Shown: one piece after another, positions 13,209 to 45,352 of the stretch
Position numbering within the stretch: the first letter of the stretch is position 1
How the letters are laid out: each line of letters begins with the position of its first letter
Origin: an uncultured Rickettsiales bacterium
Lineage (GTDB): Bacteria; Pseudomonadota; Alphaproteobacteria; Rs-D84
NCBI GenBank assembly: GCA_900546225.1
Contig: URBZ01000002.1
Span: 78,411 to 142,410 of the forward strand
Direction of reading: 5' to 3'
DNA: 64,000 nucleotides
Position numbers and translations under genes: made by a program
The notes under the pieces: generated by a model
Databases searched by the model: none
The model's input: the letters and a program-made list of their open reading frames with translations, nothing else
Told to the model about the DNA's origin: nothing

Positions 13209-13238
13209 AGAAACGCCCAAATGGGCGTTTTTATTTAT

Positions 13239-15752: not shown

Positions 15753-16122
15753 AATGATTATGCTCTTTTGTTAGTTTTAAGTAAAAATCTGGATAACCAT
15801 TACCCAGACATATTTACACTAAATCATTTTTAGATGGGAAACACAACCTATTTTAGCATTTAGGGAAATTTTGCACAGAAAAGCGCATCAATTTGTCAAC
15901 ATATAGACGCGATTTTGTAAAAACACACCTATATTTTGTATTTTTTGCGTTTTACGAATCGTTTTCTGGCGCGTTTTGGTCAAATTATTGACACAAAAAC
16001 ATATTTAGTATTCCGATTCGAGGAATCGGTCACAGCGCAAACGTACGGAAAACCCGCCTTTTGAAAAGTAAAGTAAAAAATGAAAAATTTTTTCTGTTTT
16101 ACGTGTTGATAGGAAACCTATA

Positions 16123-16170
16123 AAACTATATATTGGTATCAAATAAACAAAATAACCACTAGATATTGTG
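16123..16170 (+). promoter_or_regulatory. two candidate NrdR boxes (AAACTATATATTGGTA and ACCACTAGATATTGTG), 32 bp apart, upstream of nrdD
   Basis: Imperfect 16-bp palindromes resembling the acaCwAtATaTwGtgt consensus, separated by three helical turns, 26 bp before the nrdD ATG. Confidence 0.3.
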
Positions 16171-16195
16171 TTTTTACAAAACAAGGGACAGAAAG

Positions 16196-18238
16196 ATGTC
16201 TGATGCAGAAAACGAAACAAAAATTCAGGTTATTCCAACGCTGACGACCAAATTGGTCGCGGTACAAAAGCGCGGTGGCGAAACTGTCCCGTTCGATTCC
16301 AAAAAGATATTTGATGCAATTAAAAAGGCCGTTGCGGTCACGGGTGAAATATCTGATGCGGACGTGGCAACAATTACCCAAAACGTTTTGAACACGTTGG
16401 ACGCCAAGTTCACAGACCGTGTGCCATCGGTTGAACAGATTCAGGAAACCGTGATTCAGGCACTGATGGATGCCAAGGCGTACAAGACCGCAGAATCATA
16501 TATCATATATCGCCAGAAACGCAGCGAAATTCGCGATTCATACGTTGATGCCGTAGAGGTGATTGAGGGTTACGTTGGCGGGTCAAACTGGCGCATCAAG
16601 GAAAATGCAAATGTTGGCTATTCCATTGGTGGGTTGATTTTGCGTACCAGTGAACGCGTAACGGCGGAATACTGGCTGAACCTGTATCCACGTGAAATTG
16701 CAGAGGCCCACAAAAACGCATCTATTCACATTCACGATTTGGGCTGGCTGACGGGTTATTGTGCGGGCTGGTCGTTGCGTGAATTGTTGTACGAGGGGTT
16801 CAATGGTGTTCCGGGGTATTTGCAATGCGAACCGGCGAAACATATGGCGACCGCGATTTCGCATATGGTGAATTTCTTGGGTACATTACAGAATGAATTT
16901 GCGGGTGCACAGGCATTTTCGTCCGTGGACACGTATCTGGCACCATACGTCAGAATTGATAATCTGACATATGCCGATGTTAAAAACGCAATGCAGACGT
17001 TGATATTTAACTGTGCTGTGCCATGTCGTTGGGGTACGCAGACACCATTTATCAACTTTACATTCGATTGGACATGTCCAAAGGATTTGCGTGATCAGCA
17101 TCCATTTATTGGTAAAAAACAGGTTGATTTTACATATGGTGACCTGCAAAACGAAATGGACACAATCAACAAGGCGTTCTTGGAGGTTATGACCGAAGGT
17201 GACGCGTTGGGTCGTCCGTTTACGTTCCCAATTCCAACATATAACATTACCGACGATTTCCCATGGGAACACCCAAATGTCAAACCTTTGTTTGATTTGG
17301 CGGCAAAATACGGGATTCCAAATTTCCAGAATTTCTTAAATTCTGACCTGAATCCGACCGACGTGCGTTCTATGTGTTGCCGTCTGCGTTTGGACGTGCG
17401 CGAATTGTTAAAGCGCGGTGGTGGCCTGTTTGGGTCGGCGGAAAAGACCGGTTCAATCGGTGTTGTTACAATCAATTTGGCGCGATTGGGCTATGTACAT
17501 CGTGGCGATCGCGACGGGCTGTTCCGTGAACTGAAACGTTTGCTGGACATGGGTCGTGATTCACTGGAAATCAAGCGCAAGATTATTACCAAGAATATGG
17601 AACGCGGACTGTATCCGTTCACACGCCGTTACTTGGGCAACTGGGATCATCACTTTTCAACCATTGGCGTAAATGGTGCGAATGAAATGGTTCGCAACTT
17701 TACAGGCGACCGCGAAAACATCGCAACCCCAATGGGCAAGAAATTGGTTCTGGACGTGATGGATTTCATTCGTGAAAATCTGGCAAATTTCCAAGAACAA
17801 ACAGGCAACCTGTATAATTTGGAAGCCACCCCAGCCGAGGGTTGTTCATATCGCTTTGCCAAGACCGATGTGAAAAATTTCCCAGACATCATCACGGCGG
17901 GTACACATGATGCACCATACTATACCAATTCGACACAGTTGCCGGTGAACTTTACAGATGACCCATTTGTCGCGTTGGAACACCAAGAAGAATTACAGCG
18001 CAAATATACTGGTGGCACGATGTTGCACCTGTATATGGGCGAACCTGTATCCAGTGGCGAAGCCGCCCAGAAAATCGTACGTACAATCTTTGAAAACTAC
18101 AAGATTCCGTACATGACATTGACACCGACATTCTCGATTTGCCCGAAACACGGGTATTTGCCGGGGCGTCATGAATTCTGTCCGAAATGCGACGCAGAAG
18201 TTGTCGCAAATCAGAACTGTGAATGTAATCACGAATAA
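16196..18238 (+). CDS. nrdD: anaerobic ribonucleoside-triphosphate reductase (class III RNR) large subunit; appears to end after the Zn-ribbon, before the glycyl-radical motif
   Basis: N-terminal ATP-cone (VAVQKRGGETVPFDSKKI). Catalytic-domain motifs CCRLRLD and GSIGVVTINLARLG. C-terminal CPKH...CPKC...NCEC. Start moved to ATG 16196 (RBS AAGGGA). Confidence 0.85.
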   Translation: MSDAENETKIQVIPTLTTKLVAVQKRGGETVPFDSKKIFDAIKKAVAVTGEISDADVATITQNVLNTLDAKFTDRVPSVEQIQETVIQALMDAKAYKTAESYIIYRQKRSEIRDSYVDAVEVIEGYVGGSNWRIKENANVGYSIGGLILRTSERVTAEYWLNLYPREIAEAHKNASIHIHDLGWLTGYCAGWSLRELLYEGFNGVPGYLQCEPAKHMATAISHMVNFLGTLQNEFAGAQAFSSVDTYLAPYVRIDNLTYADVKNAMQTLIFNCAVPCRWGTQTPFINFTFDWTCPKDLRDQHPFIGKKQVDFTYGDLQNEMDTINKAFLEVMTEGDALGRPFTFPIPTYNITDDFPWEHPNVKPLFDLAAKYGIPNFQNFLNSDLNPTDVRSMCCRLRLDVRELLKRGGGLFGSAEKTGSIGVVTINLARLGYVHRGDRDGLFRELKRLLDMGRDSLEIKRKIITKNMERGLYPFTRRYLGNWDHHFSTIGVNGANEMVRNFTGDRENIATPMGKKLVLDVMDFIRENLANFQEQTGNLYNLEATPAEGCSYRFAKTDVKNFPDIITAGTHDAPYYTNSTQLPVNFTDDPFVALEHQEELQRKYTGGTMLHLYMGEPVSSGEAAQKIVRTIFENYKIPYMTLTPTFSICPKHGYLPGRHEFCPKCDAEVVANQNCECNHE

Positions 18239-21248: not shown

Positions 21249-22610
21249 TTAAGCATTTATGATTTCGGTCACTCGACGCGGTACGTCTGCAATGGCGACG
21301 CGTTCCTGACTCATATCATCACGATGACGCAATGTTACAGTACCGTCTTCCAGCGTCTGGTGGTCAACCGTTATGCAAACTGGTGTACCGATTTCATCGT
21401 GACGACGATAGTTTTTACCGATGTTACCGGAATTTTCCAGCTCAATACGGCCGATATGCAGCGCACGCAATGCATTTTCAATATCGTTTGCGGCCTGAAC
21501 CAATTCGGGTACATTACGCGCCAATGGAATAACCGCCGCCTTGACCGGTGCAAGTTTTGGTTTCAATTTCAAAACCGTGCGGGTCTTGCCATCTGGCAAT
21601 GTTTCTTCGGTATATGCCTCTATCATAACTGCCAACATTGCGCGGTTCACGCCCATTGCGGTTTCAATGACGAATGGAATAAAACTTTCGCCCGTCTGGG
21701 GATCAGAATACGCCAATTTAACCGTACTGTCGTGATTTTCCATGACATGCGCAGAAATATGAAATTCATTTTGCGCCTTGGTATGCGAACCCAAATCAAA
21801 GTCCTGACGGTTGTGAACACCTTCGACCTCGTCAAAGCCATCTGGGAATGCGTATTCGATGTCACCCGCGGCCTTGGCATAATGGGCCAATTTTTCGTGT
21901 GGTGTGAAACGCAATTTGTCCGCAGGAATGCCCAGCACATTTACCCACCATGCCATACGCGTCTTCTTCCATTCTTCGAAATATTTCGCATCATCGGCAG
22001 GATTGATAAAATACTGCATTTCCGCCTGTTCAAATTCGCGCATACGGAATACAAATCCACGTGGGGAAATTTCGTTACGGAATGCCTTGCCAATTTGGGC
22101 AATACCAAACGGCAATTTATGTGGGCACGCGTCCAAAACGTTTTTGAAATTCACATATGTTGTGGTCGCTGTTTCTGGGCGCAGGTACGCGTTGATTGCA
22201 CCATCGGCGGTTGCACCAATGGACAGCCCCATCATCAACTGGTACGCGCGTGGGTCGGTTAAATCCGTGCTGCCACAATTATCACACTTGGTTGGATCTT
22301 TCATTTTATCCTGACGCATGCGCGCGCCACATTTTTTGCATTCAACCAATGGATCAGAAAAACTGCCCTCGTGCCCTGAATATTTCCACATCAGTCGGTT
22401 GGAAATCAACGCCGCATCCAGCCCTTCGATATCATTACGGGAATAAATCATGGCGTTCCACCATGCGTTCTTAATATTCTTCATCAATTCAACACCGTAT
22501 GGGCCGTAATCGTATGCGCCACCCAAACCGCCATAGATTTCAGAACCTGTGAAAATAAAACCGCGCCGCTTGCACAATGCGACGATATCATTTACTGATT
22601 TTGCTGGCAT
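21249..22610 (-). CDS. glyQS: glycine--tRNA ligase (dimeric alpha2 type)
   Basis: 453 aa; class II motifs, N-terminus VALCKRRGFIFTGSEIYGGLGGAYDYGPYG. Confidence 0.85.
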   Translation of the reverse strand: MPAKSVNDIVALCKRRGFIFTGSEIYGGLGGAYDYGPYGVELMKNIKNAWWNAMIYSRNDIEGLDAALISNRLMWKYSGHEGSFSDPLVECKKCGARMRQDKMKDPTKCDNCGSTDLTDPRAYQLMMGLSIGATADGAINAYLRPETATTTYVNFKNVLDACPHKLPFGIAQIGKAFRNEISPRGFVFRMREFEQAEMQYFINPADDAKYFEEWKKTRMAWWVNVLGIPADKLRFTPHEKLAHYAKAAGDIEYAFPDGFDEVEGVHNRQDFDLGSHTKAQNEFHISAHVMENHDSTVKLAYSDPQTGESFIPFVIETAMGVNRAMLAVMIEAYTEETLPDGKTRTVLKLKPKLAPVKAAVIPLARNVPELVQAANDIENALRALHIGRIELENSGNIGKNYRRHDEIGTPVCITVDHQTLEDGTVTLRHRDDMSQERVAIADVPRRVTEIINA

Positions 22611-22918: not shown

Positions 22919-23650
22919 TTAGTCGCGGTTAAACAAACTCAGCAAATACTGGAACATCGCAATGAACGAGATGTACAGGTGCAACGCGCCCAATACCGCC
23001 AACTGGTTTTTCTGGTGTTCATCACCGCCCATTGCATTGTATGCATATTTCAAATTCTGCATATCATACGCGGTGAACAGTGCGAATACCAATACGCCAA
23101 TCAGGCATACGACTGTGCCAAATGTACCGCCGATAATCGCCGGCCAAATGAATGACGCCAATCCGACCAAGATTAAACCAATCATGCCCATGGTCAAGAA
23201 TACACCCAAGAATGACAGGTTCTTGATGGTCTTGTAACCGAACAACGCCATGCACGCGAACATAACCGCCGCCAGTACAAACGCCGCGATAATTGTAATC
23301 GGGTTGTTATACAATGCGAACAGCAACAAAGGTGTCATCACGATACCCAATGTCGCGGCATAGACGAACAGAATTGCCGCCGCGCGCGCCGGTGACATTG
23401 AAAATGCACGTGCCTGTGCCCATAAGGACAACCCCAATCCACCGAACATCAAAATGTAATACAGTGGTGACATGCCTGTTTCGGTGAACATCATGCCAAT
23501 CAGTGGCGTTACCATCGTGATAAACGACGCCAATGCCGTTACGCCAATCGCAGCAAACATCAGTGCGAATACGCGTTTCAGGTACAATCCCATGCCGTTA
23601 TTGTGTGCGGCGGCGGGCGACACCTGGTTCAATGATTTCTTTGCAATCAT
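22919..23650 (-). CDS. Bax inhibitor-1/YccA family membrane protein
   Basis: Start trimmed to ATG 23650 (RBS AAGGAGA). 243 aa, seven TM helices. N-terminal FLRKVY-like motif (GLYLKRVFALM). Confidence 0.65.
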   Translation of the reverse strand: MIAKKSLNQVSPAAAHNNGMGLYLKRVFALMFAAIGVTALASFITMVTPLIGMMFTETGMSPLYYILMFGGLGLSLWAQARAFSMSPARAAAILFVYAATLGIVMTPLLLFALYNNPITIIAAFVLAAVMFACMALFGYKTIKNLSFLGVFLTMGMIGLILVGLASFIWPAIIGGTFGTVVCLIGVLVFALFTAYDMQNLKYAYNAMGGDEHQKNQLAVLGALHLYISFIAMFQYLLSLFNRD

Positions 23651-23714
23651 AACTTTCTCCTTGTTATTCACCGAATATATAATACAATGCCCCCGTAATT
23701 TCAAGGGATTTAAG

Positions 23715-24569
23715 ATGGCAATAACAGTCAACCCAATTTCACCTGTTGCGTTTTCTGTCCTGGGCGTGGACATTCGTTGGTACGCGTTGGCGTATATTGC
23801 CGGATTCATTGCGGGGTACTATTTGTTCCGCCACCTGATGCGGCGCAGTGACAGCCAGATTAAATTAAACAAGACCCAAATGGACGACCTGTTGACCGCC
23901 GTGATTTTGGGCGTGATTCTTGGGGGACGTTTGGGATACGTGTTGTTCTATAACCTGCCCTATTTTCTGGCGCACCCGTTACAGATATTTATGGTGTGGA
24001 ATGGCGGTATGAGTTTCCATGGCGGGCTGATTGGTGTAATCGTGGCGACATTTTTCTATGCACACAAATTGCATCGCGCATCAAACAGTGGCATCACGGG
24101 TGGCACAGTGAATATCGCGCTGCGCATACTGGACTTGCTGGCCGTGGTGACACCGATTGGATTCTTTTTCGGGCGCATTGCAAACTTTATAAATATGGAG
24201 GTTATGGGTCGTCCAACCGACATGCCATGGGGCGTTGTGTTTAACGGCTACACCCAAATCCCATTGCACCCCAGCCCATTGTACGAGGCCACCGCCGAAG
24301 GCATTGTCTTGTTCACGTTTATGTATTGTATGTATCGTTTCACGGGACTGCGCCGGCACGCGGGCGCGATTGGCGGGGTGCTGGGTATGGCATATGCCAC
24401 CGCGCGTATATTCTGTGAACAGTTCCGTATGCCGGACGCACAAATCGGATTTTTAACAAATTGGGGGCTGACCATGGGCCAGTTGCTGTCGGCGATAATG
24501 TTTGCCGCCGGCGCGACGCTGTTTGCCTGTGCGATGCGGGGGGACAAAACCAAAGGACAAATCAAATGA
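23715..24569 (+). CDS. lgt: prolipoprotein diacylglyceryl transferase
   Basis: 284 aa from ATG 23715 (RBS AAGGGA); Lgt signature GGMSFHGGLIG and N-terminal ISPVAF...IRWYALAYI. Confidence 0.85.
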   Translation: MAITVNPISPVAFSVLGVDIRWYALAYIAGFIAGYYLFRHLMRRSDSQIKLNKTQMDDLLTAVILGVILGGRLGYVLFYNLPYFLAHPLQIFMVWNGGMSFHGGLIGVIVATFFYAHKLHRASNSGITGGTVNIALRILDLLAVVTPIGFFFGRIANFINMEVMGRPTDMPWGVVFNGYTQIPLHPSPLYEATAEGIVLFTFMYCMYRFTGLRRHAGAIGGVLGMAYATARIFCEQFRMPDAQIGFLTNWGLTMGQLLSAIMFAAGATLFACAMRGDKTKGQIK

Positions 24570-24832: not shown

Positions 24833-25171
24833 GACAGCAGTTGCATATCCCGTCGCGCGTTCTGGAATCGTGACGGGTTCTTTTTCTTGAATTTATCTGG
24901 TAAATGTGTCAACATATACACCAGAATCAACCCGGAATGTTGGTTCGGGGCTGTGGTAAGCCCAATATATTCGGTGCAAGTGCATCGTAATCTGATGTTT
25001 CCGGTGCATTTTGCATCGTAATCATCCCCTTGCCATTTGGTTGGGGGGCTGTTCGCTATAAGGATTTATCCAAAGGCAACAGAATCACTGATATATTGAT
25101 TTACCAACTCCCCAACCGCCATTTCCGTGGGCGGTTTCTTTGTTTTGTTTATATGCCAAGGGGGAATTGAC

Positions 25172-26038
25172 ATGACACAGGTTGCAATTTTGTATATTGC
25201 GCTCGGTCGCTATACGGTGTTTTGGGACGATTTTTACAAATCGTGTGAAAGATATTTGACACCGTGTGACAAACATTACTTTATCTGGACGGACAGTCCG
25301 ACGTCCGCGATGCGTGGTAAAAACATCACGATTATCCCGACACAAAAACGTGGGTGGCCGTATGACAGCCTGATGCGTTTTGAGATGTTTCTGGGGGTGG
25401 CAGATAAACTGAAACAGTTTGATTATGTTTTCTTTTTTAATGCGAATTTCCAATTTTATAACCCGGTGGATTTGGCAGAAATCACCCCGCGCGAATGGCA
25501 TAATGGACTGGTTGCCGGGTTGCATCCGGGGCCGTCCGGCGATATCCATCAGGTCCCAGATAATTACCCGTATGAACGGCGTCCTGAATCCACCGCGTGC
25601 GTGCCGTATTGGCGCGGCCGCCACTATGTGTGCGGTGCATTTAATGGGGGAACGGCGGCCGCGTTTCTGAAAATGTGCCGCGTGCTGGCGAAAAACGTCC
25701 AAACCGATTTGCAACATAATATTGTGGCATGTGTTGATGATGAATCACACCTGAACGCATATTTGGTTGAACATCCGGATTTCTTGCTGTGCGGCCGCGC
25801 ATATGGTTTCCCCGAAGGAGCAATAAAACATATCCCGCGGCGCCAACGCGTAATGATAAAAATAATCAGTCGGGCCAAGGACAGCACAAAATACGGCGGA
25901 ACACAGTGGTTGCGCGGAAATACGGATAAAAAGATGTCAACCAGTATATTCGCAGCGATTATTCGTAAATTGTTGCGCGTGGTTGCATGCATGGTGCCGT
26001 CACAAAAATTGCGTCGTAAAATTCGCGGTCTGTATTAA
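25172..26038 (+). CDS. putative glycosyltransferase-like protein (hypothetical)
   Basis: 288 aa from ATG 25172 (RBS AAGGGGGA). The family assignment is a guess from WDDF...YFIWTD...YVFFFNANFQ hydrophobic/acidic patterning. Confidence 0.35.
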   Translation: MTQVAILYIALGRYTVFWDDFYKSCERYLTPCDKHYFIWTDSPTSAMRGKNITIIPTQKRGWPYDSLMRFEMFLGVADKLKQFDYVFFFNANFQFYNPVDLAEITPREWHNGLVAGLHPGPSGDIHQVPDNYPYERRPESTACVPYWRGRHYVCGAFNGGTAAAFLKMCRVLAKNVQTDLQHNIVACVDDESHLNAYLVEHPDFLLCGRAYGFPEGAIKHIPRRQRVMIKIISRAKDSTKYGGTQWLRGNTDKKMSTSIFAAIIRKLLRVVACMVPSQKLRRKIRGLY

Positions 26039-26158: not shown

Positions 26159-26248
26159 GGATGGGTGGCAGAGCGGTCGAATGCGACGGTCTTGAAAACC
26201 GCTGAAGGGGCAACTCTTCCGGGGGTTCGAATCCCTCCCCATCCGCCA
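26159..26248 (+). tRNA. tRNA-Ser (anticodon TGA), type II, CCA encoded
   Basis: Acceptor GGATGGG/CCCATCC, discriminator G, CCA. Anticodon loop CTTGAAA. Long variable arm. T-arm GGGGGTTCGAATCCCTC. Followed by terminator hairpin CATCCCGTGG..CCACGGGATG + T-run (26258-26292). Confidence 0.8.
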
Positions 26249-26476: not shown

Positions 26477-27451
26477 ATGACACAAGATAATAAAGTAATA
26501 AAATTAGAAACTTTTTCCACTCATTTCTTTACAAATGGGGCAGACAAGCATTTTATAATAGCGGAAGATTATAAAATATTTATAGAAAGCATAGAACAGA
26601 TACTAGCGAACATAAATACGGAATTACTGAAAGGACAAGCAAAGTACGAATTATGCATTGTTGCAAATAAAGAAGGTGGTTTTTGGAGTACTGTTGGTGT
26701 GCTTGGGACTTTAATAAGTATACCTGCTGCATTGGATTCAGAACTTATACATGGTTTCTATACAGGATTAACTGGACACGATTATGATTTAAGAAGTGTC
26801 GGTGAAAATGTTGGAAGTTTTTTACGAGATGCAACTGTCGGTATTTTTTCTAAAAATGCGACAGAACTGTCGAAAATTATACCCAAAGAATTGAATCTAG
26901 ACAAAGCGATTTATGCTAAAAATGGGTTCTATCGTATGTGCGCTACAAATCAAGACATTAGGGGGGTGTCTTTTTCTGATAGCAATGAGCCAGAAATTCA
27001 AAAGAAAGATTTTGTAAATTATATTGTGTCCGATACCGACAAAAATTTGCCAGCAGAACAGTTTATAGATATTGTTACAATTGTTAAATCGGTAAATGTA
27101 AAAAGTGATGCTAAATGGTCGGTAAAAATTGGCGAAAGTGCCAAACCTAAATCTGTAGAAATGTTAGACGACGAATTTAAAAAAGAATTCCTATCTGGCC
27201 GATATGCAATAAAACAGACCGAACAAGATGACACGATGACGGTTTTATTAGAAAAAAAGAAAAAATATGTCAACGGACATGAACAAGACGCAGGTTTATC
27301 CATAGTAAAAGTATATAAATTTAATGATACACAAATATTACCAATTCCATCAGATATCGCTCATAAAACACGCCGTCCAAAAATAGATTTGTTTAATTTT
27401 CAAGATAATATTACAACTGATTCTTCCATGCAATCTGAAACAAATCGTTAA
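26477..27451 (+). CDS. hypothetical protein (first gene of the AT-rich island)
   Basis: 324 aa ORF, low GC, no recognisable motif. Confidence 0.4.
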   Translation: MTQDNKVIKLETFSTHFFTNGADKHFIIAEDYKIFIESIEQILANINTELLKGQAKYELCIVANKEGGFWSTVGVLGTLISIPAALDSELIHGFYTGLTGHDYDLRSVGENVGSFLRDATVGIFSKNATELSKIIPKELNLDKAIYAKNGFYRMCATNQDIRGVSFSDSNEPEIQKKDFVNYIVSDTDKNLPAEQFIDIVTIVKSVNVKSDAKWSVKIGESAKPKSVEMLDDEFKKEFLSGRYAIKQTEQDDTMTVLLEKKKKYVNGHEQDAGLSIVKVYKFNDTQILPIPSDIAHKTRRPKIDLFNFQDNITTDSSMQSETNR

Positions 27452-27710
27452 CGTTGATTTTGAATTTCCCTGACAAGATTTCGTTAATCTTGTCCGGATT
27501 CATATATGCCAGGTCGAGGTGGCGATAAAACTGACGTGGGGATGTGTGTTCGGATGCGATGATTTTGTCTGCATCGCCACATTCTTCATATGTTTCCCGA
27601 TACTTCCATGCGATGGCAAAGGCTTTGACGATCAGGAGATTATTATCGGTGACGGTCAAGACTCTGTTCTTGGATTTATTAAACACTGTGTTCACATACT
27701 GACGTAGCAC
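27411..27710 (-). pseudogene. N-terminal fragment of a P4-type tyrosine integrase (arm-binding DUF4102-like region only)
   Basis: 99 aa; LLIVKAFAIAWKYRETY...SPRQFYRHLDLAYMNPDKI matches the LYLxVxPxGxKxWxxRYR...LGxYPxxSLAxAR N-terminal integrase pattern. No catalytic domain follows. Confidence 0.3.
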
Positions 27711-27979
27711 AATCGGTATGGTTAAAACTATTCTGTTGCCGCCACAGCTGTAGAATTGGCCGGTAAATCACCAGAAATGACCAAGAAATTATTGGCAGCA
27801 TCGGTGGGAAATAATGTACTGATTGCAACCGGTTACACCATATACCATTACTTTGCTTAGCATTTAAAAGTTTATTATAATCTTATAATCATCAATAAGT
27901 TATGCCAGAAGCCGCGATATAATTTTGTTGCAATTGTTCGTTTTTGTACTAGTATCAAGTGGGTGGGGAGAGGACAACT

Positions 27980-29152
27980 ATGAAAGGTGCCACAATGCTT
28001 TTACGCAATAATTTATTTCGTTTTGAGAAGCCGGACAATTTCCAAAATCTTTCAACTTCCAGATTAATGAATGGTTTGGTTTATGATTTTAACGATCCTT
28101 ATATTCCATTTTTTACACCAATTGGTACACGACTGTTCAACAACATAGAAAATATATTTAAACAAAATGCTATGCGTATTGATTGTAATGAGGTTATTAT
28201 TCCACAATTAATGACCACAGAGTTATTGACCCAAGGTCAAGAAATTGGTGAATTGTTTGGGCGTAAAGTAATGCATCTATCAGGTACGATGGCAGAGTTC
28301 CATCTTCTTACATCTCCGGAGATGATGTTTATAAATATGTTGAAAAAAAATAACATAGAGAGTAATGCGCTGCCAATACATTACTATTTTGTATCTAATT
28401 TTTTCAGAGATATGCATGATCCAAAAAACATACTTCGAACTAAGCAATTGCGTGTTATTGCAGGTATTTCTTTTGACAAAACACAGAATGATAGATTGAA
28501 GACAGAAAATAAACTGTTACAAACTTTGCACAACACGTTTGTTGATTGTAAAGTCCCATTCTTAGCAGAGTATGGCTCTAGTGGATTTACGTGCGAATAT
28601 TTTTACATGAATTCCAAAGAAACAGAAAACTATATAATTCCAAGCATAAATCCGCACAAGAAAACAAAAGCTCTCAGCTTCGCAATGATTTATGATTATG
28701 GTCAAGAATGTCCATTTGATGTTTTACACAAAAATTCAGTAACAGGGCTAAAAGACAAAACCTTTATGACATCATACGCAATAAGCGCCCAGCGATTACT
28801 TTATGTAATAATGGATTCGTGCAGAGATAGCAAAGGCTTTTCAATGCCATCTAATATCCGTCCATACGATGTCGCGCTCATAACAAATGAACAGCAATCG
28901 GATATAGCGCAGAAAATGGCGCGAGATTTGTCATGCAGTGGTATCTCTTCCTATATAGACAATATGTTTACTAAGGCGCACGTTAAGCGTCTGGATGTTG
29001 CCGATTACATAGGAGTCGGATTAAAAATTGTTAATAAGAATGATAAGTTTACTGTCTTTAACCGCGATGGAGAGATGCTGATAACAGGCTTCGCACCAGA
29101 CCTGATTATTTCAGCGGTTAAGGATTCGATTATAGCACAAAAACAAAAATAG
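27980..29152 (+). CDS. class IIa aminoacyl-tRNA synthetase paralog (ProRS/HisRS/ThrRS-like catalytic core plus a C-terminal anticodon-binding-like domain)
   Basis: 390 aa from ATG 27980 (RBS GGAGAGGA). Motif-1-like VIIPQLMTTELLTQGQ. Motif-2-like FFRDMHDPKNILRTKQLRVIAGISFD. Motif-3-like SYAISAQRLLYVIMD. C-terminal PYDVALITNEQ...GISSYIDN...DYIGVGLKIVNK..FTVFNRDGE resembles the HGTP anticodon-binding fold. Confidence 0.55.
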   Translation: MKGATMLLRNNLFRFEKPDNFQNLSTSRLMNGLVYDFNDPYIPFFTPIGTRLFNNIENIFKQNAMRIDCNEVIIPQLMTTELLTQGQEIGELFGRKVMHLSGTMAEFHLLTSPEMMFINMLKKNNIESNALPIHYYFVSNFFRDMHDPKNILRTKQLRVIAGISFDKTQNDRLKTENKLLQTLHNTFVDCKVPFLAEYGSSGFTCEYFYMNSKETENYIIPSINPHKKTKALSFAMIYDYGQECPFDVLHKNSVTGLKDKTFMTSYAISAQRLLYVIMDSCRDSKGFSMPSNIRPYDVALITNEQQSDIAQKMARDLSCSGISSYIDNMFTKAHVKRLDVADYIGVGLKIVNKNDKFTVFNRDGEMLITGFAPDLIISAVKDSIIAQKQK

Positions 29153-29221
29153 TTAAACTGCTTTGCGAGAAGAAAGATACTGTAATTTTCAGAAACAGTA
29201 TAGTGGCTTTTTGAAAAACCA

Positions 29222-29252
29222 GAAAATGCTTGGTAATAATTACATTACTACC
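29222..29252. terminator. bidirectional terminator between the convergent aaRS-like gene and the MccF-like gene (GCTTGGTA...TACCAAGC flanked by A/T runs)
   Basis: 8-bp inverted repeat with A-run upstream and T-run downstream. Confidence 0.5.
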
Positions 29253-29271
29253 AAGCAAAATTTTTACCCGC

Positions 29272-30312
29272 TTAGATAACAGCATTTTCTAAGATAGAAA
29301 ACTTTTTATTTATCATATCCATCTCTGCCAATGCGCCATATGGCAGGTAAAACATAGGGTCTGTGTGTCCGAAATCCATTTGGGTTATAATAGGCATATC
29401 ACTACGACCACATTCGCGTGTGATTGTCAGTAATGCATTTTCGTAAATTGATAAATTGTCTCTGCTGCCTTTTGCCCGTCCCATAATAATCCCCGATATT
29501 CTGTTAAGGATTCCTTGGGCTGCTAAACTGCGCAACCAATACAAAAGCATATCTTCTGGTGGCAAGCTTTCGGACGTTTCAAGAAATAAAATTGCTTTAT
29601 CAAATTCATCCGTTTTAGGAAATAGCTCTGTCCCTGTCAGCATCAATAATACCTCAAAACAACCACCAATCAATCTGCCACGCACTACAGAATTACCTTG
29701 CAAATAATTTGGCCCAGTATATGGATACAGTTTCCGTTTGATTTTTAAATTTTCAGGATATGTCCAATCTAAAAATTCGTCTGTCCAACCATCGGTTGCG
29801 GGTAAAATTTCCCCGATGACATCAGTAGCAAATAATGTTTTCTTTGTTTGCTCTATTGTATATGGAAACAAGCTGACATTTTCGCCGAACCCAGCCATTA
29901 CGGTAGGTCCATAGATAGAGCTTAATCCCGCTTTATAGCACATAAAGTGAATTGCGGTTGGATCAGAATACCCCAAAAAAATCTTTGGATTATTTTTGAT
30001 GATATTCAAATCCAGATATGGGAATAATCTGATACAATCATCACCACCAATGATAGAAATAATCGCTTTTACTTCTGGATTTTCAAACGCCCACATCAGG
30101 TCTTTTGCACGTTCTTCGGGATGTTCATATAAATAATCAATTGATTGCAAAGCGTTCGGAGTTTCTATCACTTTTAGCCCAAAGTTATTTTCTATTTGAC
30201 TTTTCCCCCATTGATATTGATGCGGGAAACGACTTGCTGAACCATAAGAGCAACTAATTGCTGCAACTGTATCGCCAACTTGCAGGGCTTTGGGTTTTAT
30301 TAATGTTTTCAT
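29272..30312 (-). CDS. S66-family serine peptidase, MccF-like (microcin C7 self-immunity / LD-carboxypeptidase fold)
   Basis: 346 aa (MccF is about 344, LdcA about 304). Motifs VGDTVAAIS, IIGGDD, GYSDPTAIH (nucleophile Ser), ...MDFGHTDPMFYLPYGALAEMD (catalytic His). RBS AAGGGAGAA. Confidence 0.75.
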   Translation of the reverse strand: MKTLIKPKALQVGDTVAAISCSYGSASRFPHQYQWGKSQIENNFGLKVIETPNALQSIDYLYEHPEERAKDLMWAFENPEVKAIISIIGGDDCIRLFPYLDLNIIKNNPKIFLGYSDPTAIHFMCYKAGLSSIYGPTVMAGFGENVSLFPYTIEQTKKTLFATDVIGEILPATDGWTDEFLDWTYPENLKIKRKLYPYTGPNYLQGNSVVRGRLIGGCFEVLLMLTGTELFPKTDEFDKAILFLETSESLPPEDMLLYWLRSLAAQGILNRISGIIMGRAKGSRDNLSIYENALLTITRECGRSDMPIITQMDFGHTDPMFYLPYGALAEMDMINKKFSILENAVI

Positions 30313-30345
30313 GCTGTTTTCTCCCTTGGTTTTATATTCGGAGCA

Positions 30346-39434: not shown

Positions 39435-41735
39435 TTATATTTTTATACTCAATGCGTTAAAATGCTTTTTGTCTGTACTTTTGATAAAATGGAACAAATC
39501 TGCAATTTCGTCTCGGCCAGCCACATAGCTAAAGTTCTGACATCCGGAAATCGCGCCAACACCATTCGAATGAGAAAACGCATTGGCCACGCCCCATAAA
39601 TAGTGAAATCTATTATTATCATTTTCTGTCAGACAGTTAAACTTTTTCAAATACGAATTTGTATTAGGAATCTTTGCATCCAAGTAAGTTTCTAGTACCC
39701 GTCGAATAAGATTACCTATGCATACGTCTGGGGGTGTTCGTTTATTCTGATAAAATTCATTTAATTTCTGTACAAGATCCAAATATTCAGAAGTACTGTT
39801 TTGTAAGTAATCACTAGCCATTCTAATCTTTGAACCCACTGATGCTATTTTTTGTATTTCAAATATCTTGAAATTATTCTTATCTATATGTTTCATAGCT
39901 TCTCTAATTTTTACAAAAAAATAGAAATTATGTGTCAGCAATATTACTTGCTCACATTTTTTTATAGTGGTAACTATCCAGTCACCTATTTGGAATAGAT
40001 TCTTACTATCCAAGCTAGAAACAGGATCATCAATAACTATTATTGGACTTTCCTTTCCGGCTTTTTTCATCGATTGAATTGGAATGATAAAATACAAAAA
40101 TGCGATAAGAGTTTTCTCACCTTCGCTTAGATTTTTTGCATCAACGAATGTACCATCGTCAAGCTTTCTTTGTATTGTATAAACATTCTCCCTTGGGCCC
40201 TCTCTAAAAGAGATATTATTTAATGCAGATTGTTCCAATGCTTTATTGATCAACATAATAATTTTAGACTTCTCGGCCAACTTACGCTTACAATCCAGTT
40301 TCTGCTTTTCTAAATCACCTAATCTTTGTTTGTCTGTATCCCTATCTTTTGTTTTTTGTTTTATTTTTTCATCCATTATATTTAATGTCTGTGAATTCTT
40401 TTGGATATAAAACAGAACCACTTGCTGCTTATATTTTACTTTTCTACTTTCCAGAGAATCTATAATTGCATTGTGTTGTTGTATTATAACCTCTATCGTC
40501 TTTATCGATTTTATTAAACATTGTAAATTATCATATATCTGATTTTCGTACGTTATAGAATACGTTGTCTCCAAATTAAGTGCTTTTTTTGCAACAGATT
40601 CATCTAATTTTTCTAAGAGTGGTTTCAGCTCTATCAATATGTTATTTATTTGATTCTTTTCTGCAATATACCTATCATACGCACTGTCCCTAGATAATTT
40701 AGAAGCATCCGGCAAAGATATTTCAACTTGTTCTATAAGTTCCCTATTATCTCTCAAGACATCTATTAACGTCCAAAAAGCTTTTTCTTGCATATCAAAA
40801 ACAACATCTTTCTTGACCAACTCTTTTATTTCTTGATAACGCTGCTGCCAGAAATCATCGGCAATCTTTTGATTACAAAACAAACAATTAGAATGATTAC
40901 CCCGGTGCAATGCCAAGCCACTTTCTAACCACTGTTTTATATTCTCTGTTCCAGGATTGGAATTTCTGGATAACGATGTCTGCAAAATATCTATTATCGA
41001 TTTATACGCATCAATATTGAAATCTGCATCAAAGTTTCTTAATTTATTGACTATATTTAATTCTATTTTCGTTTTTATTGGTTCAATAAAAATATCTCTT
41101 GCGTGATTTTTTTCTTCTTCACTAATGCGTTCCTCTTTATCCTGTTGCACACGTTCTAAATCTATCTTTAATTGCTTTTGTGTATACTTCTGCGGGCTAT
41201 CAATATGCAAGCAAATACGTATTTCTTTTGCAACATTACTTAGAAAATCATTTTTTTGTTGTTCTAGCTTTTGCAGCTCTATATTTGACTTTAAGTCCGT
41301 ACCACCACCAACAACAAGGGTTTCAATATCCGCATTGATTTTATTTAGTTTTTCTGTAATTTTTATATTTTGATCACCAATAATAATATCAACTTTGTTT
41401 GCTCGAGATTTTTTTAAGGAAAGATTATTCTCTATAAAATCCGTATTAAAAACTTTTATTTTATCTATCAATGGCCCATCTACTACAGAACGAAAAACCT
41501 TTCTTTTTCCGCCAACTTTGTAACACAACTCGCCTTTAGAAAAATTGTACAGCACGTTATTTTCATTGTCTACGTATTGCATTTGACCACGACTGATACA
41601 TTCAAACATTCGACTAAGAGTTGTTTTCCCAGTGCCATTGTAACCATAAAACAGATTGTATTTTGCTAATTTTACTGTTTCTGACTGCTTACGAAAACTA
41701 CCTATGTTAGAAATCTTTTGAATAGCATCTATCAT
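39435..41735 (-). CDS. RloC/PrrC-family AAA ATPase with coiled-coil insertion (predicted anticodon-nuclease-type abortive-infection protein)
   Basis: 766 aa. Walker A GYNGTGKTT. Long coiled coil with CLFCNQ (CxxC, zinc-hook-like). ABC signature NLSEGEKTLIAFLYF. Walker B IIVIDDPVSSLD. H-loop LLTHNFYF. C-terminal about 160 aa with IRRVLE (RxxxE), then His about 33 aa later in RFHYLW (PrrC-like ACNase spacing). Confidence 0.55.
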   Translation of the reverse strand: MIDAIQKISNIGSFRKQSETVKLAKYNLFYGYNGTGKTTLSRMFECISRGQMQYVDNENNVLYNFSKGELCYKVGGKRKVFRSVVDGPLIDKIKVFNTDFIENNLSLKKSRANKVDIIIGDQNIKITEKLNKINADIETLVVGGGTDLKSNIELQKLEQQKNDFLSNVAKEIRICLHIDSPQKYTQKQLKIDLERVQQDKEERISEEEKNHARDIFIEPIKTKIELNIVNKLRNFDADFNIDAYKSIIDILQTSLSRNSNPGTENIKQWLESGLALHRGNHSNCLFCNQKIADDFWQQRYQEIKELVKKDVVFDMQEKAFWTLIDVLRDNRELIEQVEISLPDASKLSRDSAYDRYIAEKNQINNILIELKPLLEKLDESVAKKALNLETTYSITYENQIYDNLQCLIKSIKTIEVIIQQHNAIIDSLESRKVKYKQQVVLFYIQKNSQTLNIMDEKIKQKTKDRDTDKQRLGDLEKQKLDCKRKLAEKSKIIMLINKALEQSALNNISFREGPRENVYTIQRKLDDGTFVDAKNLSEGEKTLIAFLYFIIPIQSMKKAGKESPIIVIDDPVSSLDSKNLFQIGDWIVTTIKKCEQVILLTHNFYFFVKIREAMKHIDKNNFKIFEIQKIASVGSKIRMASDYLQNSTSEYLDLVQKLNEFYQNKRTPPDVCIGNLIRRVLETYLDAKIPNTNSYLKKFNCLTENDNNRFHYLWGVANAFSHSNGVGAISGCQNFSYVAGRDEIADLFHFIKSTDKKHFNALSIKI

Positions 41736-41752
41736 CGTGTAACTTCTTATGC

Positions 41753-43078
41753 TTATTTTAGATCCTCAAATGCTTTCGCCATTGTCGGGTTATTTCTTGT
41801 CAAACGTTTTATTGATAAATTCTGCGCTTTATCATTAGCCAAACGCAGATTATTTTCAGTCCCGAGTAAGGCATCCTTTATTTTTTGCAAGTGATCTATT
41901 GTCTTATCAATTTCTTCTATAGCCTTCTTGAATTTGTCGCTGGCTGTTTTATAATTCCGACCAAAGCGATCTCTAAACTCATTCATTTCTGCTTCAAAAT
42001 TTGAGACATCGATATTGGCCTGCTTGTATTCTGCAATTTGTTGTTTGTATTGAACAGAATTCAGTGCCGCATTCCGTAACAATGTTATAATTGGAATAAA
42101 ACATTGTGGTCTTACAACATACATTTTTGGATATTTGTGCGACACATCAACAATACCAGCATTATATAATTCATTGTCAGATTCCAGCAACGAAACCAAA
42201 ACAGCATATTCACAATTTTTATCCTTTCGGTCTTTATCAAGTTCTTTGAAAAAATCTTCATTTTTGTGTTTTGTGGCTGTTGTATCCATCTCGTTTTTCA
42301 TTTCAAACATAATGGATATAAATTCCGTTTTTTTATCAACATCTGCATAATCACGAAATATAAAATCGCCCTTACTTCCATTCTTGACTTCGTTGTCTTT
42401 TTCGAAATATGCATTTGGGAATGCTGCAGGCCGCATCCGTTCAAATTCAATATGACAGTGTTGTTCCAATGTCTCTCCTACCATTTTTGTGGACATTTTT
42501 GTTTTCATGTCCTTGTATAGCGCAATTTCGACATCTTTTGCCTTTAATTGTGCATCATATTCACTTTTTAATGTTTGTTGTTTTAATTCAATATCTTGTG
42601 CGGCCGCCTTTACTTCGCCCTGCAAGGCAAGAATTTGCGCGTCTTTTTCAAAAAGCATATCCTTTGATTTACTTAATGCCTTTTCTACTGCAATTACCTT
42701 TTCCTGCTCTGATGCATTTATACGTGCTTTGAATTCGACAATTTGTTCATTCAAACATGCAATAGACTTTGCTTTGTCCGCTTCTATACCCGCAATTTTT
42801 AACTTCATTTCAGCCGCAGCATCGCGCTCTGCCGATGAAATTTTCTCTTTGAGTGTTGCTATTTCTTCTTTTAACGCAGAAATTGATAATTCTTTATCGT
42901 TTTTTGCCTGTTCTTTTAATAAGTCGATTTCACTTTTTGATTGCGCCTTATATTGTTGTAATCGCAACGCAACCTCCTTGTCAAACTCAACATTTTTAAT
43001 TTGACTTACAATCGCTGCATAACCCGATTCATCAATAGTGAATTGCGTATTACATTTCGGACATTTTATCTCGTGCAT
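41753..43078 (-). CDS. DUF2130 family protein (N-terminal zinc ribbon, long coiled coil, C-terminal nuclease-like domain)
   Basis: 441 aa from ATG 43078 (RBS AAGGAGAAATAT). N-terminus MHEIKCPKCNTQFTIDESGYAAIV is typical of DUF2130. 17 nt upstream of the RloC-like gene. Confidence 0.65.
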   Translation of the reverse strand: MHEIKCPKCNTQFTIDESGYAAIVSQIKNVEFDKEVALRLQQYKAQSKSEIDLLKEQAKNDKELSISALKEEIATLKEKISSAERDAAAEMKLKIAGIEADKAKSIACLNEQIVEFKARINASEQEKVIAVEKALSKSKDMLFEKDAQILALQGEVKAAAQDIELKQQTLKSEYDAQLKAKDVEIALYKDMKTKMSTKMVGETLEQHCHIEFERMRPAAFPNAYFEKDNEVKNGSKGDFIFRDYADVDKKTEFISIMFEMKNEMDTTATKHKNEDFFKELDKDRKDKNCEYAVLVSLLESDNELYNAGIVDVSHKYPKMYVVRPQCFIPIITLLRNAALNSVQYKQQIAEYKQANIDVSNFEAEMNEFRDRFGRNYKTASDKFKKAIEEIDKTIDHLQKIKDALLGTENNLRLANDKAQNLSIKRLTRNNPTMAKAFEDLK

Positions 43079-43088
43079 ATATTTCTCC

Positions 43089-43421
43089 TTAAATCTTGGA
43101 CACATCTAGGTCAACATGCGCGACACACTGCTGCTCACATTTGTGTTGACACTGTTCATCTGTGTACCATTGACCATCACGCACAACCAAGCGAGACATT
43201 TTTGCAATTTTAAAGCAACGCCACGACGCAGGTATTTCCGTTGGTATCTGCCCTTTGCTGCTTTCTCCAGCAAACTGATACCCTAGCAACTGTTCTTGGC
43301 CTTGGTCATTCAATCCGATTATATGTGGACACACTTCTCGATGAAATCCGTCATAATCAAAAAACAATTGCTGTTTGTGCTCAATTGCACCCCTAATAAC
43401 CATATAGTTTTCAGACGCCAT
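43089..43421 (-). CDS. small WYL-like domain protein (no HTH)
   Basis: About 110 aa from MASENY (RBS AAGAGGAAAAAGC). QLFFDYDGFHREVCPHIIG...LLGYQF...IPASWRCFKIAKMSRL fits the WYL-fold pattern (R.v.P..l...W.R.FrldRI). Stop is 10 nt before the DUF2130 start. Confidence 0.35.
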   Translation of the reverse strand: MASENYMVIRGAIEHKQQLFFDYDGFHREVCPHIIGLNDQGQEQLLGYQFAGESSKGQIPTEIPASWRCFKIAKMSRLVVRDGQWYTDEQCQHKCEQQCVAHVDLDVSKI

Positions 43422-44021
43422 GCTTTTTCCTCTTGTTTTACAATAAAGAGATAGCACACATTAGGAACAAAAGCAATAACTTATTGTAATTACTGTATTT
43501 TAGGAAATTTTTCCCAATATTTTTGTGATATATTGCTTTTATGTGCAACATAACTGGATATATTGTCGCGCATCACGCGCTTTTTTGCACCAATACAGAG
43601 TATTACAGACCACAATTCAACCACAGGTTGTACAAAGACGAAAATTCAATTTATTTTTTACAAACATCCTAACCATCAGACAAAATTCGCGTGATACGCG
43701 AATTTATGCAAATATTCAATCACCGGTTACACAATGCGTTTTTTATAAAGAAATCAACCAATACTAGAATTTACACCTAATTTTGTACTATATGCAAACT
43801 TTTTTACAACTTTACACATTTATACCATTTAGACAATCGACATCTGAAAACCGCCCTGCAATTCAACCATTGGTTGAATTGTTTATATTTTTCTATCACT
43901 GCTTACAAAAACAGCTGTTTTTTCTACCACAGATTGTATTTTATGACAAAATCAACTTATTGTAGAATACACTGTTCGTTTTTTGAGATTTTACGTAATT
44001 ATCACACAAAAAACATATCTC

Positions 44022-44915
44022 GTTATAGGCTGCTTCTCAAATCGTCTTTGATATAATCATTTTTTCGTTCGCTTTTCGCAACTTACAGTTATAGGTTGCT
44101 TCTCAAATCGTCTTTGATATAATGTGAATTACCAGAAATAGGCAATTTAACCTGTTATAGGTTGCTTCTCAAATCGTCTTTGATATAATTTATATGCTTA
44201 GCATGTGCGAGCGTCTACGGTTATAGGTTGCTTCTCAAATCGTCTTTGATATAATCCAGCATTCGCAACGGTACAAATCAACCCGGTTATAGGTTGCTTC
44301 TCAAATCGTCTTTGATATAATCGAAATATGTAGAACAGAGCACTCGAAGGAGTTATAGGTTGCTTCTCAAATCGTCTTTGATATAATGGCACATCTTTGT
44401 CAACCTGCGCCTGCAAAGTTATAGGTTGCTTCTCAAATCGTCTTTGATATAATGTCAACAGTCGCAATAACATTTCCCATCGTGTTATAGGTTGCTTCTC
44501 AAATCGTCTTTGATATAATAAAAAGGATTAAGCTATGATACTCAGAGATGTTATAGGTTGCTTCTCAAATCGTCTTTGATATAATGTCAACAGTCGCAAT
44601 AACATTTCCCATCGTGTTATAGGTTGCTTCTCAAATCGTCTTTGATATAATAACACAATCCCGGTGTGGTATGTAAACCTGGTTATAGGTTGCTTCTCAA
44701 ATCGTCTTTGATATAATCGAATTCAAAGACCTTGATTGGGCGCATTTGTTATAGGTTGCTTCTCAAATCGTCTTTGATATAATATTCGGGGTTGTACCAC
44801 GTAACACAATTCCGTTATAGGTTGCTTCTCAAATCGTCTTTGATATAATAAACCATTCGAACACATTTACACGTGCAATGTTATAGGTTGCTTCTCAAAT
44901 CGTCTTTGATATAAT
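44022..44915 (+). CRISPR. CRISPR array, 14 x 36-bp repeats (GTTATAGGTTGCTTCTCAAATCGTCTTTGATATAAT), 13 spacers of 30 nt, period 66
   Basis: Repeat starts at 44022, 44088, 44154, 44220, 44286, 44352, 44418, 44484, 44550, 44616, 44682, 44748, 44814, 44880. The first repeat is degenerate (GGC for GGT). Spacers 7 and 9 are identical. Each repeat ends in TTTGATATAAT (extended -10). Confidence 0.95.
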
Positions 44916-44922
44916 AGACACA

Positions 44923-44957
44923 CAAAAACCCACTGATAAAAGTGGGTTTTTGTGTAT
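44923..44957. terminator. bidirectional hairpin terminator between the array and cas2 (CACAAAAACCCACT-GATAAA-AGTGGGTTTTTGTG)
   Basis: 14-bp inverted repeat seen directly in the sequence; symmetric, so functional on both strands. Confidence 0.5.
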
Positions 44958-45018
44958 TATATTCAACAAAAAACGTACGTATTGCCATCGGCTGATGACG
45001 AATCGTCTTGTTTTTTTA

Positions 45019-45351: not shown

Positions 45352-45352
45352 T

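Follow-up and report, generated by a model that had tools for sequence, protein, structure and literature searches.

Microcin C (McC) and agrocin 84 are made by the described systems closest to the one presented here. MccD of the McC pathway transfers the 3-amino-3-carboxypropyl group of S-adenosylmethionine (SAM) to the peptidyl-nucleotide, and MccF releases the nucleotide from its aminoacyl or peptidyl part (PMC8323819). Agrocin 84 is specified by the agn cluster, 17 genes on plasmid pAgK84 of Rhizobium rhizogenes K84; AgnA, a truncated homologue of asparaginyl-tRNA synthetase (AsnRS), is proposed to join a pentanamide to AMP via a phosphoramide bond (PMC8323819; PMC4392301), and agn-like clusters have been reviewed only from Ensifer strain ENS09 and some Actinobacteria. 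In this study a 64,000-nt stretch of contig URBZ01000002.1 (positions 78,411 to 142,410), from an uncultured Rickettsiales bacterium and hereafter called the window, was analysed around a gene for a family S66 peptidase at 29272-30312. This gene belongs to a five-gene cassette that appears to be a compact and mobile version of the agrocin-84-type gene set without an exporter, seemingly undescribed so far. In uncultured gut bacteria the cassette probably makes an antibiotic-type compound that mimics an aminoacyl-AMP intermediate, and the evidence inclines, although not strongly, towards the S66 protein hydrolysing the aminoacyl-N bond of that compound as a means of producer self-protection.

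The S66 open reading frame (ORF) encodes an intact and, as predicted from its residues, active Ser-His-Glu hydrolase of the family. Both Pfam domains scored above their gathering thresholds, the S66 N-terminal domain (PF02016) at residues 16-135 (E 2.4e-32, 112.1 bits against a cut-off of 25) and the S66C C-terminal domain (PF17676) at residues 211-331 (E 9.5e-26, 91.2 bits against 23.7), and the catalytic triad, Ser116/Glu245/His316, falls in invariant alignment columns matching S118/E243/H311 of E. coli MccF. The original prediction had called the protein MccF-like rather than LdcA-like from its size, nucleophile elbow, C-terminal motif and genomic setting, and all of this was borne out, with one refinement to the motif. 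Its 346 aa compare with 344 for E. coli MccF (plasmid MccC7-H22) and 304 for E. coli K-12 LdcA (b1192), and the GYSD elbow lies at residues 114-117 with Ser116 aligned to the MccF nucleophile S118. The C-terminal motif, FGHTDPMFYLPYG, begins at residue 314 and does fit FGHTxPMxxLPxG; of this pattern, however, only H-T-x-P-M separates MccF from LdcA, the FGH...LPxG frame being family-wide (SHTHPM in E. coli MccF, GHTDPM in AgnC5 of the agn cluster, GHEQRT in LdcA, H-T-D-P-M in the window protein). The gene also lies, as stated, in an AT-rich island (about 26 to 45 kb of the window; GC 0.32-0.39 versus 0.41-0.53 elsewhere), and no murein-recycling genes were seen among its annotated neighbours.

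When the PDB was searched with phmmer, the best match was BA3275 of Bacillus anthracis (5f5x; E 3e-103, 49% identity, colinear over the whole length), which is thus the closest solved structure and was deposited, also as 5f1y, 5f9m and 5jyb, as an 'MccC family protein'. The MccF proteins of B. anthracis (3gjz) and E. coli (3tla) followed at E 2e-37 and 8e-35, whereas LdcA structures reached only 2e-16 to 4e-7. Identity to MccF itself is 31% (E about 1e-35 to 1e-37 overall; 4e-37 by pairwise blastp with the E. coli protein), and the LdcA equivalog of NCBIfam (NF008424) was failed at 65.2 bits against a cut-off of 378. The distance from the catalytic Ser to the conserved GG is 100 aa, compared with 98 in E. 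coli MccF, 99 in AgnC5, 68 in E. coli LdcA and 63-72 among four LdcA-type proteins, so that the inter-domain insertion of about 30 residues typical of MccF is present. Within it, Trp183 aligns with W186 of E. coli MccF, which stacks on the adenine of processed McC (PMC8323819); in a larger MAFFT alignment the sole Trp of E. coli LdcA also fell in this column, and three other LdcA-like proteins were gapped there. In a neighbour-joining tree with 100 bootstraps the LdcA-sized proteins formed a separate group (89-92%), and the window protein joined BA3275 and the other S66 proteins from cassettes in a clade with 100% support, to which AgnC5 and E. coli MccF were the nearest outgroups. Taken together, the PDB E-values, the bootstrapped tree, the Trp-bearing insertion and the failed equivalog cut-off place the protein nearer to MccF than to LdcA. 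Alignment, insertion loop and phylogeny, the checks attached to the original prediction, each favoured MccF, with which the protein shares the Ser/Glu/His triad, the long loop and H-T-x-P-M, and support its assignment to the MccF side of family S66 as a new member of the MccF/AgnC5 branch; the public annotation as LdcA is misleading.

The likeness to MccF does not extend to the presumed specificity pocket. Residues N220, R246 and K247 of E. coli MccF, which we take to be its contacts to the Asp side chain, are replaced in the alignment by E220, E248 and S249 in the window protein, and the first two positions are likewise E/E in AgnC5 and BA3275. An Asp/Glu side-chain pocket like that of E. coli MccF appears to be missing, and the substrate is probably of another type than Asp/Glu adenylates. 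E. coli MccF cleaves Asp/Glu adenylates only, and prolyl-sulfamoyl-adenosine (Pro-SA) is no substrate (PMC3817062). Because of this narrow specificity, the E/E/S at the aligned positions and the closeness to the uncharacterised BA3275, S66-borne resistance to McC or to Asp- or Glu-sulfamoyl-adenosine may well be absent even should the overall interpretation be correct.

The strongest evidence for the interpretation of the S66 protein is its gene neighbourhood, which the original prediction had overlooked and where a truncated aminoacyl-tRNA synthetase (aaRS) paralogue, two SAM-dependent enzymes and a derivative of prolyl-tRNA synthetase (ProRS) are encoded next to it. The features of the cassette are as follows.

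32086-33090, minus strand: AgnA-like truncated class IIb aaRS paralogue, 334 aa, first gene of the operon
31238-32068, minus strand: MT276, class I SAM-dependent transferase, 276 aa, homologue of AgnB1/MccD
30346-31236, minus strand: MT296, class I SAM-dependent methyltransferase, 296 aa, with weak BioC/Tam-like similarity
29272-30312, minus strand: S66 serine peptidase of the MccF/AgnC5/BA3275 branch, 346 aa, ATG start, last gene of the operon
27995-29152, plus strand: ProRS-derived two-domain gene, 385 aa from ATG, convergent with the S66 gene
29227-29257, no strand: hairpin with a 14-bp stem and a 3-nt loop, between the convergent S66 and ProRS-like stop codons
33091-33421, minus strand: conserved upstream non-coding part of the mobile block, with sigma-70-like hexamers (e.g. 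33156-33129)
27839-33421, no strand: whole mobile block, about 5.6 kb, 98-99% identical in gut-metagenome contigs L001-L005

The four co-directional genes are spaced by 1-33 nt in the order AgnA-like, MT276, MT296, S66; the upstream region 33091-33421 is presumed to hold the operon promoter, and the hairpin is probably a shared bidirectional terminator. The AgnA-like protein has an AsnRS/asparagine-synthetase-A-type catalytic core with intact class II motifs 2 and 3 and no anticodon-binding domain (Pfam tRNA-synt_2, E 8e-33; top NCBIfam match archaeal-type asparagine synthetase A, 245 bits against a cut-off of 389). A tblastn search of plasmids with the window S66 protein matched agnC5, annotated 'MccF-like protein', on pAgK84, where agnA is followed by a SAM-dependent methyltransferase gene (agnB1), by agnB2 for a resistant leucyl-tRNA synthetase (LeuRS) and by agnC1-C7, with two NUDIX genes near. 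In pairwise blastp the AgnA-like protein was 45% identical to AgnA over its full length (336 aa; E 9e-104) and MT276 was 45% identical to AgnB1 over 270 aa (E 4e-78), the two genes matching agnA-agnB1 in order and orientation; MT276 also matched E. coli MccD (27% identity, E 8e-30). The S66 protein was 29% identical to AgnC5 (E 5e-39), with which it shares the long loop and the neighbourhood in the tree. The cassette thus uses the gene vocabulary, and in part the order, of agn: an AgnA homologue, an AgnB1-type SAM enzyme directly downstream, an MccF-like S66 protein and an extra aaRS-type gene. The E/E at S66 positions 220/248 of AgnC5 and the NUDIX genes near related loci add to the likeness, and both gene sets reside on mobile DNA of Alphaproteobacteria.

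There are also differences. Five genes stand against 17, the host is an uncultured gut alphaproteobacterium, and when all Agn proteins were compared by blastp with the cassette proteins no counterparts of AgnC1-C4, C6, C7, D, E, F or the AgnG exporter were detected. A functional second-copy aaRS such as the AgnB2 LeuRS is also lacking, the extra aaRS-type gene of the cassette being a degenerate ProRS derivative. From the mcc cluster only an MccD-like SAM transferase is found near the S66 gene; the cassette has no MccA peptide, ThiF-like MccB, MccC exporter or MccE, and no ThiF or major facilitator (MFS) domain occurs among the S66 neighbours. Inspection by eye of small ORFs upstream of the operon for an MccA-like peptide gene gave just one ORF of four codons.

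The ProRS-like protein (397 aa if the upstream GTG at 27959 is used) consists of a catalytic core and an anticodon-binding-like domain, both of which align with the minimal alphaproteobacterial ProRS (2i4l, E 4e-14). The arginines of motifs 2 and 3 remain, but the Glu of motif 2 and the glycines of motif 3 are gone (FRDM for FRDE; SYAISAQR for G.GIG.SR), and the protein reaches 84 bits where the ProRS cut-off is 558. A role as a resistant ProRS copy for immunity is disfavoured by these scores, which lie far below synthetase cut-offs as do those of MetRS-like and AlaRS-like partners elsewhere. The family is tiny, with 17 clusters among 5.8 billion proteins, and in GTDB genomes it occurs only in metagenome-assembled genomes (MAGs) of uncultured gut or rumen Alphaproteobacteria. 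In L002 (11161-12317), whose cassette is otherwise 98% identical, the ProRS-like gene is split by an apparent frameshift into ORFs of 246 and 120 aa, while the S66, methyltransferase and AgnA-like genes there are intact.

The block behaves as a mobile unit, since it is 98-99% identical in L001-L005 and the DNA that flanks it in these contigs is only 71-84% identical to the window. The cassette occupies at least three different neighbourhoods, and the identical S66 protein was found on at least 22 contigs and listed in 81 blocks of the collection. A megablast comparison of the cassette region with E. coli genomes gave no match. No convincing terminal repeats or att sites were recognised at the block ends. 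More distant relatives keep the core AgnA-like > MT276 > S66 < ProRS-like at 62-67% identity (L007, L022, L023, L019), and the S66 and ProRS-like pair is retained where other genes have been swapped (L012, L020, L011). The MT276 gene is always directly downstream of the AgnA-like gene, and MT296 is an optional part, present in the window, L012, L023 and L029 and absent from L007, L019 and L022. Gene orders in the related loci, with arrowheads giving direction, are listed below.

L007 and L022: AgnA-like > MT276 > S66 < ProRS-like
L023: MT296 > ProRS-like < S66 < MT276 < AgnA-like
L019: the core with a DnaJ-domain gene and two NUDIX genes
L012: ProRS-like > DnaJ < S66 (92% identity) < MT296 < RibD_C < RsmB-like methyltransferase
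L020 and L011: ProRS-like and S66 with APS-kinase/zeta-like, PPDK-like, GATase, NTP-transferase and sulfotransferase genes

The association of S66 with AgnA-like genes was also counted across loci. A protein search for AgnA-like sequences gave 1,323 matches, and a metagenome scan confirmed 310 AgnA-like loci, of which 80 were returned and 62 were evaluable; partners were counted within 6 kb of the AgnA-like gene.

S66: 44 of the 62 evaluable loci (71%)
AgnB1/MccD-like methyltransferase: 34 of 62
AlaRS-like: 12 of 62
MT296-like: 10 of 62
ProRS-like: 6 of 62
NUDIX: 6 of 62

In all 46 AgnA-associated S66 proteins the triad is present and the Ser-to-GG segment is long (90-103 aa), and every one scores nearer to MccF, AgnC5 or BA3275 than to LdcA; the Trp183 position is aromatic in 42 of them. 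The aaRS-type partner varies, including ProRS-, AlaRS-, MetRS- and HisRS/HisZ-like proteins as well as bona fide GlyRS, LysRS and LeuRS, as would be expected if the cassettes make different aminoacyl warheads. Two further arrangements illustrate this.

Draconibacterium: AgnA-like > AlaRS-like > S66 > ATP-grasp
Alphaproteobacterial MAG: AgnA-like > methyltransferase; < methyltransferase < S66 < MetRS-like

The AlaRS-like and MetRS-like partners in these two loci score far below real synthetase cut-offs; bona fide enzymes in other AgnA and S66 clusters exceed theirs (GlyRS 596 bits against 312, LysRS 542 against 468). S66 proteins with the same type of partner cluster together, a pattern inseparable from vertical inheritance of whole cassettes. 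Viral contigs (IMG/VR) yielded no AgnA-like gene.

Two further groups of natural products bear on what the ProRS-like protein might do. The truncated aaRS-like proteins AcmF and SbzA aminoacylate nucleoside sulfamates or sulfonamides on nitrogen, drawing on aminoacyl-tRNA (PMC12945691). In the ascamycin (acm: AcmF/AcmD/AcmE) and SB-203208 (sbz: SbzA) pathways a degenerate aaRS-like enzyme thus puts an amino acid on the NH2 of a sulfamate or sulfonamide nucleoside, and in acm a separate hydrolase, AcmE, is proposed to remove it. The likeness is functional only, because the enzymes there are AlaRS/IleRS-like with an alpha/beta-hydrolase, the acceptor is a sulfamate rather than the presumed phosphoramidate and the hosts are Streptomyces. 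Phosmidosine, also of Streptomyces, is the methyl ester of a prolyl phosphoramidate nucleotide, and by this analogy prolyl phosphoramidate nucleotide chemistry is plausible. Its compound class is confirmed in the literature (PMC6429109); no report of a phosmidosine gene cluster was found.

The data show the family placement, the intact catalytic residues, the MccF-type loop, the homology of the partners to AgnA, AgnB1 and MccD, a gene set that is conserved and mobile, and a statistical association of S66 with AgnA-like genes. From these we infer a scheme for the cassette, in which the individual reactions, the amino acid, the nucleotide and the immunity role are all proposals. The substrate of the S66 protein would be an N-acyl-phosphoramidate nucleotide, a non-hydrolysable mimic of an aminoacyl-adenylate made in the cell by the four other cassette genes. 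The AgnA-like AsnRS paralogue would form the P-N (phosphoramidate) linkage to the nucleotide, and the ProRS-derived enzyme would select and install the amino acid, probably proline or a proline-like acid. The amino acid might come from aminoacyl-tRNA by analogy with AcmF and SbzA, a route that would suit a ProRS-like protein still carrying an anticodon-binding domain and the arginines for adenylate binding. The product would be decorated by MT276, the AgnB1/MccD-like SAM transferase, and by MT296. Finally, the S66 enzyme would strip the aminoacyl group, at its carboxamide bond, from warhead accumulating in the producer, whose own tRNA synthetase would be protected much as MccF protects against McC.

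Several observations weigh against this scheme. The cassette encodes neither an exporter nor any protein with a transmembrane segment, which sets it apart from mcc (MccC) and agn (AgnG) and would be surprising for a secreted antibiotic, and a small ORF with multiple transmembrane segments was found within 3 kb in just 2 of 48 AgnA and S66 clusters. As E. coli MccF is specific for Asp/Glu and leaves Pro-SA intact (PMC3817062), a Pro-type activity of the window protein is an extrapolation. A literature search returned no published account of BA3275 function, and any part played by AgnC5 in agrocin synthesis is putative. The BA3275-type subfamily is very large (3041 matches) and its members mostly lie outside such cassettes and not beside AgnA-like genes, so the subfamily overall may have a different or broader role. 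The predicted structure of the ProRS-like protein is poor (pLDDT, the predicted local distance difference test, 58), and a Foldseek TM score of about 0.55 supports only its ProRS ancestry. AgnC1, remotely ProRS-like according to the review, showed no relationship to the ProRS-like family in hhalign (probability 0.5%), so that the comparison between the two is one of analogy.

Among other roles for the S66 protein, a step in making or activating the product survives best, although we regard it as unlikely. The enzyme might shorten a precursor, take off an aminoacyl or peptidyl protecting group or activate a pro-form, and AgnC5 may do likewise in the agnC operon. Consistent with such a role, the S66 gene lies within the biosynthetic operon rather than on a separate immunity transcript, just as agnC5 stands midway in agnC1-C7, and it is the most constant partner of AgnA-like genes, ahead of the methyltransferase, as for a core pathway enzyme; in some clusters the bona fide second aaRS could already give immunity. 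However, the sole characterised members of the branch, the MccF proteins of E. coli and B. anthracis, detoxify (PMC8323819), and immunity genes inside biosynthetic operons are known in other systems. In L006 (8001-10609), moreover, a 75%-identical S66 gene is followed by two NUDIX genes and a histidine phosphatase gene with no AgnA-like or aaRS-like gene, an arrangement resembling a degradation or resistance set. Self-immunity is favoured over maturation.

Slightly less likely again is an intracellular toxin-antidote or anti-phage module, in which the cell, on phage infection or loss of the island, would make a non-hydrolysable aminoacyl-adenylate mimic that stays inside it, shuts off one of its own tRNA synthetases and arrests translation as a form of abortive infection or addiction; the variable aaRS-derived gene would set the target, and the S66 protein would be the antidote that holds basal levels harmless. 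Such modules would be widespread, exporter-less and placed in defence islands. No variant of the cassette has an exporter, and the block is a mobile AT-rich segment in a tRNA-Ser-linked island beside a PDC-S06 ATPase, DUF2130 and CRISPR-Cas9. Its neighbours elsewhere include type I restriction-modification, Hachiman-like HamA with a helicase, Thoeris ThsA/ThsB, DNA methylases and CTD10/MC6-7/DUF2326. Mobile bacteriocin and antibiotic cassettes also gather in variable islands, however, the association with defence genes is one without a baseline, the closest characterised homologues come from a secreted antibiotic pathway, and no sensor or regulator is evident. Nor does the cassette correspond to a known defence system: in PADLOC-DB v2 the S66, ProRS-like and AgnA-like proteins had no match and the two methyltransferases had generic methyltransferase-domain matches only.

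An independent resistance gene against microcin C-like or other aminoacyl-nucleotide antibiotics of competitors, linked to the cassette merely physically, is improbable. Many MccF homologues do stand alone, that of B. anthracis confers McC resistance (PMC8323819), and L006 carries an S66 gene without the cassette; against it stand the tight operon, its joint occurrence with AgnA-like genes in different phyla (71%) and a block whose genes are conserved and mobile together. It is very improbable that the protein is an ordinary LD-carboxypeptidase LdcA recycling murein tetrapeptide, as labelled in public sources, for although a fragment of the same cluster is labelled by JGI 'LdcA involved in peptidoglycan recycling' and the two share Pfam family, fold and catalytic triad, the score lies at 65 bits against 378, the E-values to LdcA structures are at least 20 orders of magnitude weaker than to MccF, the long insertion is that of MccF, the protein falls outside the LdcA group in the tree, the murein-recycling context is lacking and LdcA gives no protection against McC-like compounds (PMC8323819).

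With 310 confirmed loci and 1,323 protein matches, the AgnA-type phosphoramidate-forming enzyme appears widespread in metagenomes, and about 70% of the evaluable loci combine it with an MccF-type peptidase and an aaRS-derived gene of varying amino-acid class. If these compact cassettes do produce aminoacyl-nucleotide inhibitors, they would be a reservoir of natural products that target tRNA synthetases, including in human-gut Alphaproteobacteria, together with matching hydrolases of differing aminoacyl specificity. These hydrolases would be potential resistance determinants against drug leads of the aminoacyl-sulfamoyl-adenosine type, including Pro-SA, which classical MccF leaves uncleaved, and the large uncharacterised BA3275-type subfamily would gain a testable function. 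A further outcome is a correction to the public 'LdcA, peptidoglycan recycling' label.

NUDIX genes, often paired, recur beside S66 genes or the cassette (L019, 15746-16656; L001, 12683-13090) and in agn (pAgK84, L024, 5678-6619), and there is none in the window copy. Two small ORFs without a family match, 27411-27710 (99 aa) and 33209-33541 (110 aa, overlapping the block end), lie at or just outside the block edges and are partly conserved wherever else the cassette occurs (aa identity 64-90% and 71-79%, respectively), perhaps as leftovers of an insertion site or a recombination module. The left edge of the AT-rich island is a tRNA-Ser(TGA) gene at 26159-26248, 1.6 kb from the cassette, and a tRNA-Ser gene also lies 0.7 kb from the cassette in L004 (13163-13252) and 3.4 kb from it in L001 (15913-16003). 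This recurrent adjacency suggests a tRNA-linked integration hot spot. Between the tRNA gene and the cassette, a 324-aa ORF (26477-27451) weakly matched a 'LAPAL motif-containing putative phage structural protein' (41.6 bits, cut-off 60) and the PADLOC candidate PDC-S42 (E 1e-5). Core genes lie left of the island, namely dimeric-type GlyRS (21249-22610; 536 bits, above the cut-off), Lgt (23472-24569) and a family-6 glycosyltransferase (25127-26038); parts of this region match L004 at 75-83%, showing L004 to come from a related but distinct genome.

On the other side of the cassette, a 228-aa protein with an N-terminal J-domain (E 8e-15) and an overlapping 408-aa ORF without a family match occupy 37041-38953; as a candidate for the DnaJ409 partner of related cassettes this pair was rejected, tblastn showing no similarity. 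At 39435-43457 a 766-aa AAA_13 ATPase (PADLOC candidate PDC-S06, E 3e-91) has as same-strand neighbours a DUF2130 protein of 450 aa and an ORF of 122 aa, with which it probably makes up another defence module of this island. The right edge is a type II CRISPR-Cas locus (44022-49264), with about 13 copies of the 36-nt repeat GTTATAGGTTGCTTCTCAAATCGTCTTTGATATAAT at a period of 66 (44022-44916), a 110-aa ORF that is possibly Cas2 (45019-45351), Cas1 (45353-46267) and a 982-aa Cas9 (46316-49264; 567 bits to TIGR01865).

Relatives of the ProRS-like gene also occur in L015 (7001-15158), L016, L018, L021, L020 and L011 with genes of APS-kinase/zeta-toxin-like, PPDK/PEP-utilising, GATase, UbiE-type methyltransferase, NTP-transferase and sulfotransferase type. 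Most of these loci encode a protein of about 410 aa with a C-terminal J-domain, PAP-phosphatase-like genes are found in L011, and L011 and L020 carry one or two S66 genes; the set looks like a sulfate- or sulfamate-based counterpart of the phosphoramidate cassette. L028 of Marinimicrobium locisalis (8001-16954) represents a different use of an AgnA-type enzyme, its AgnA-like gene (48% identity) being accompanied, with no S66 gene, by those for a LuxD-like acyltransferase, a LuxC-like reductase, a LuxE-like acyl-protein synthetase, a 688-aa protein and YcaO. Finally, a 491-aa RelA/SpoT-family protein (587 bits to TIGR00691), which may be either a functional partner or just a conserved neighbour on the chromosome, is encoded in or beside the AgnA-like clusters of 15 metagenomic loci, among them L071, L077, L079, L081, L082, L085, L091, L092, L094, L099-L101, L105 and L106.

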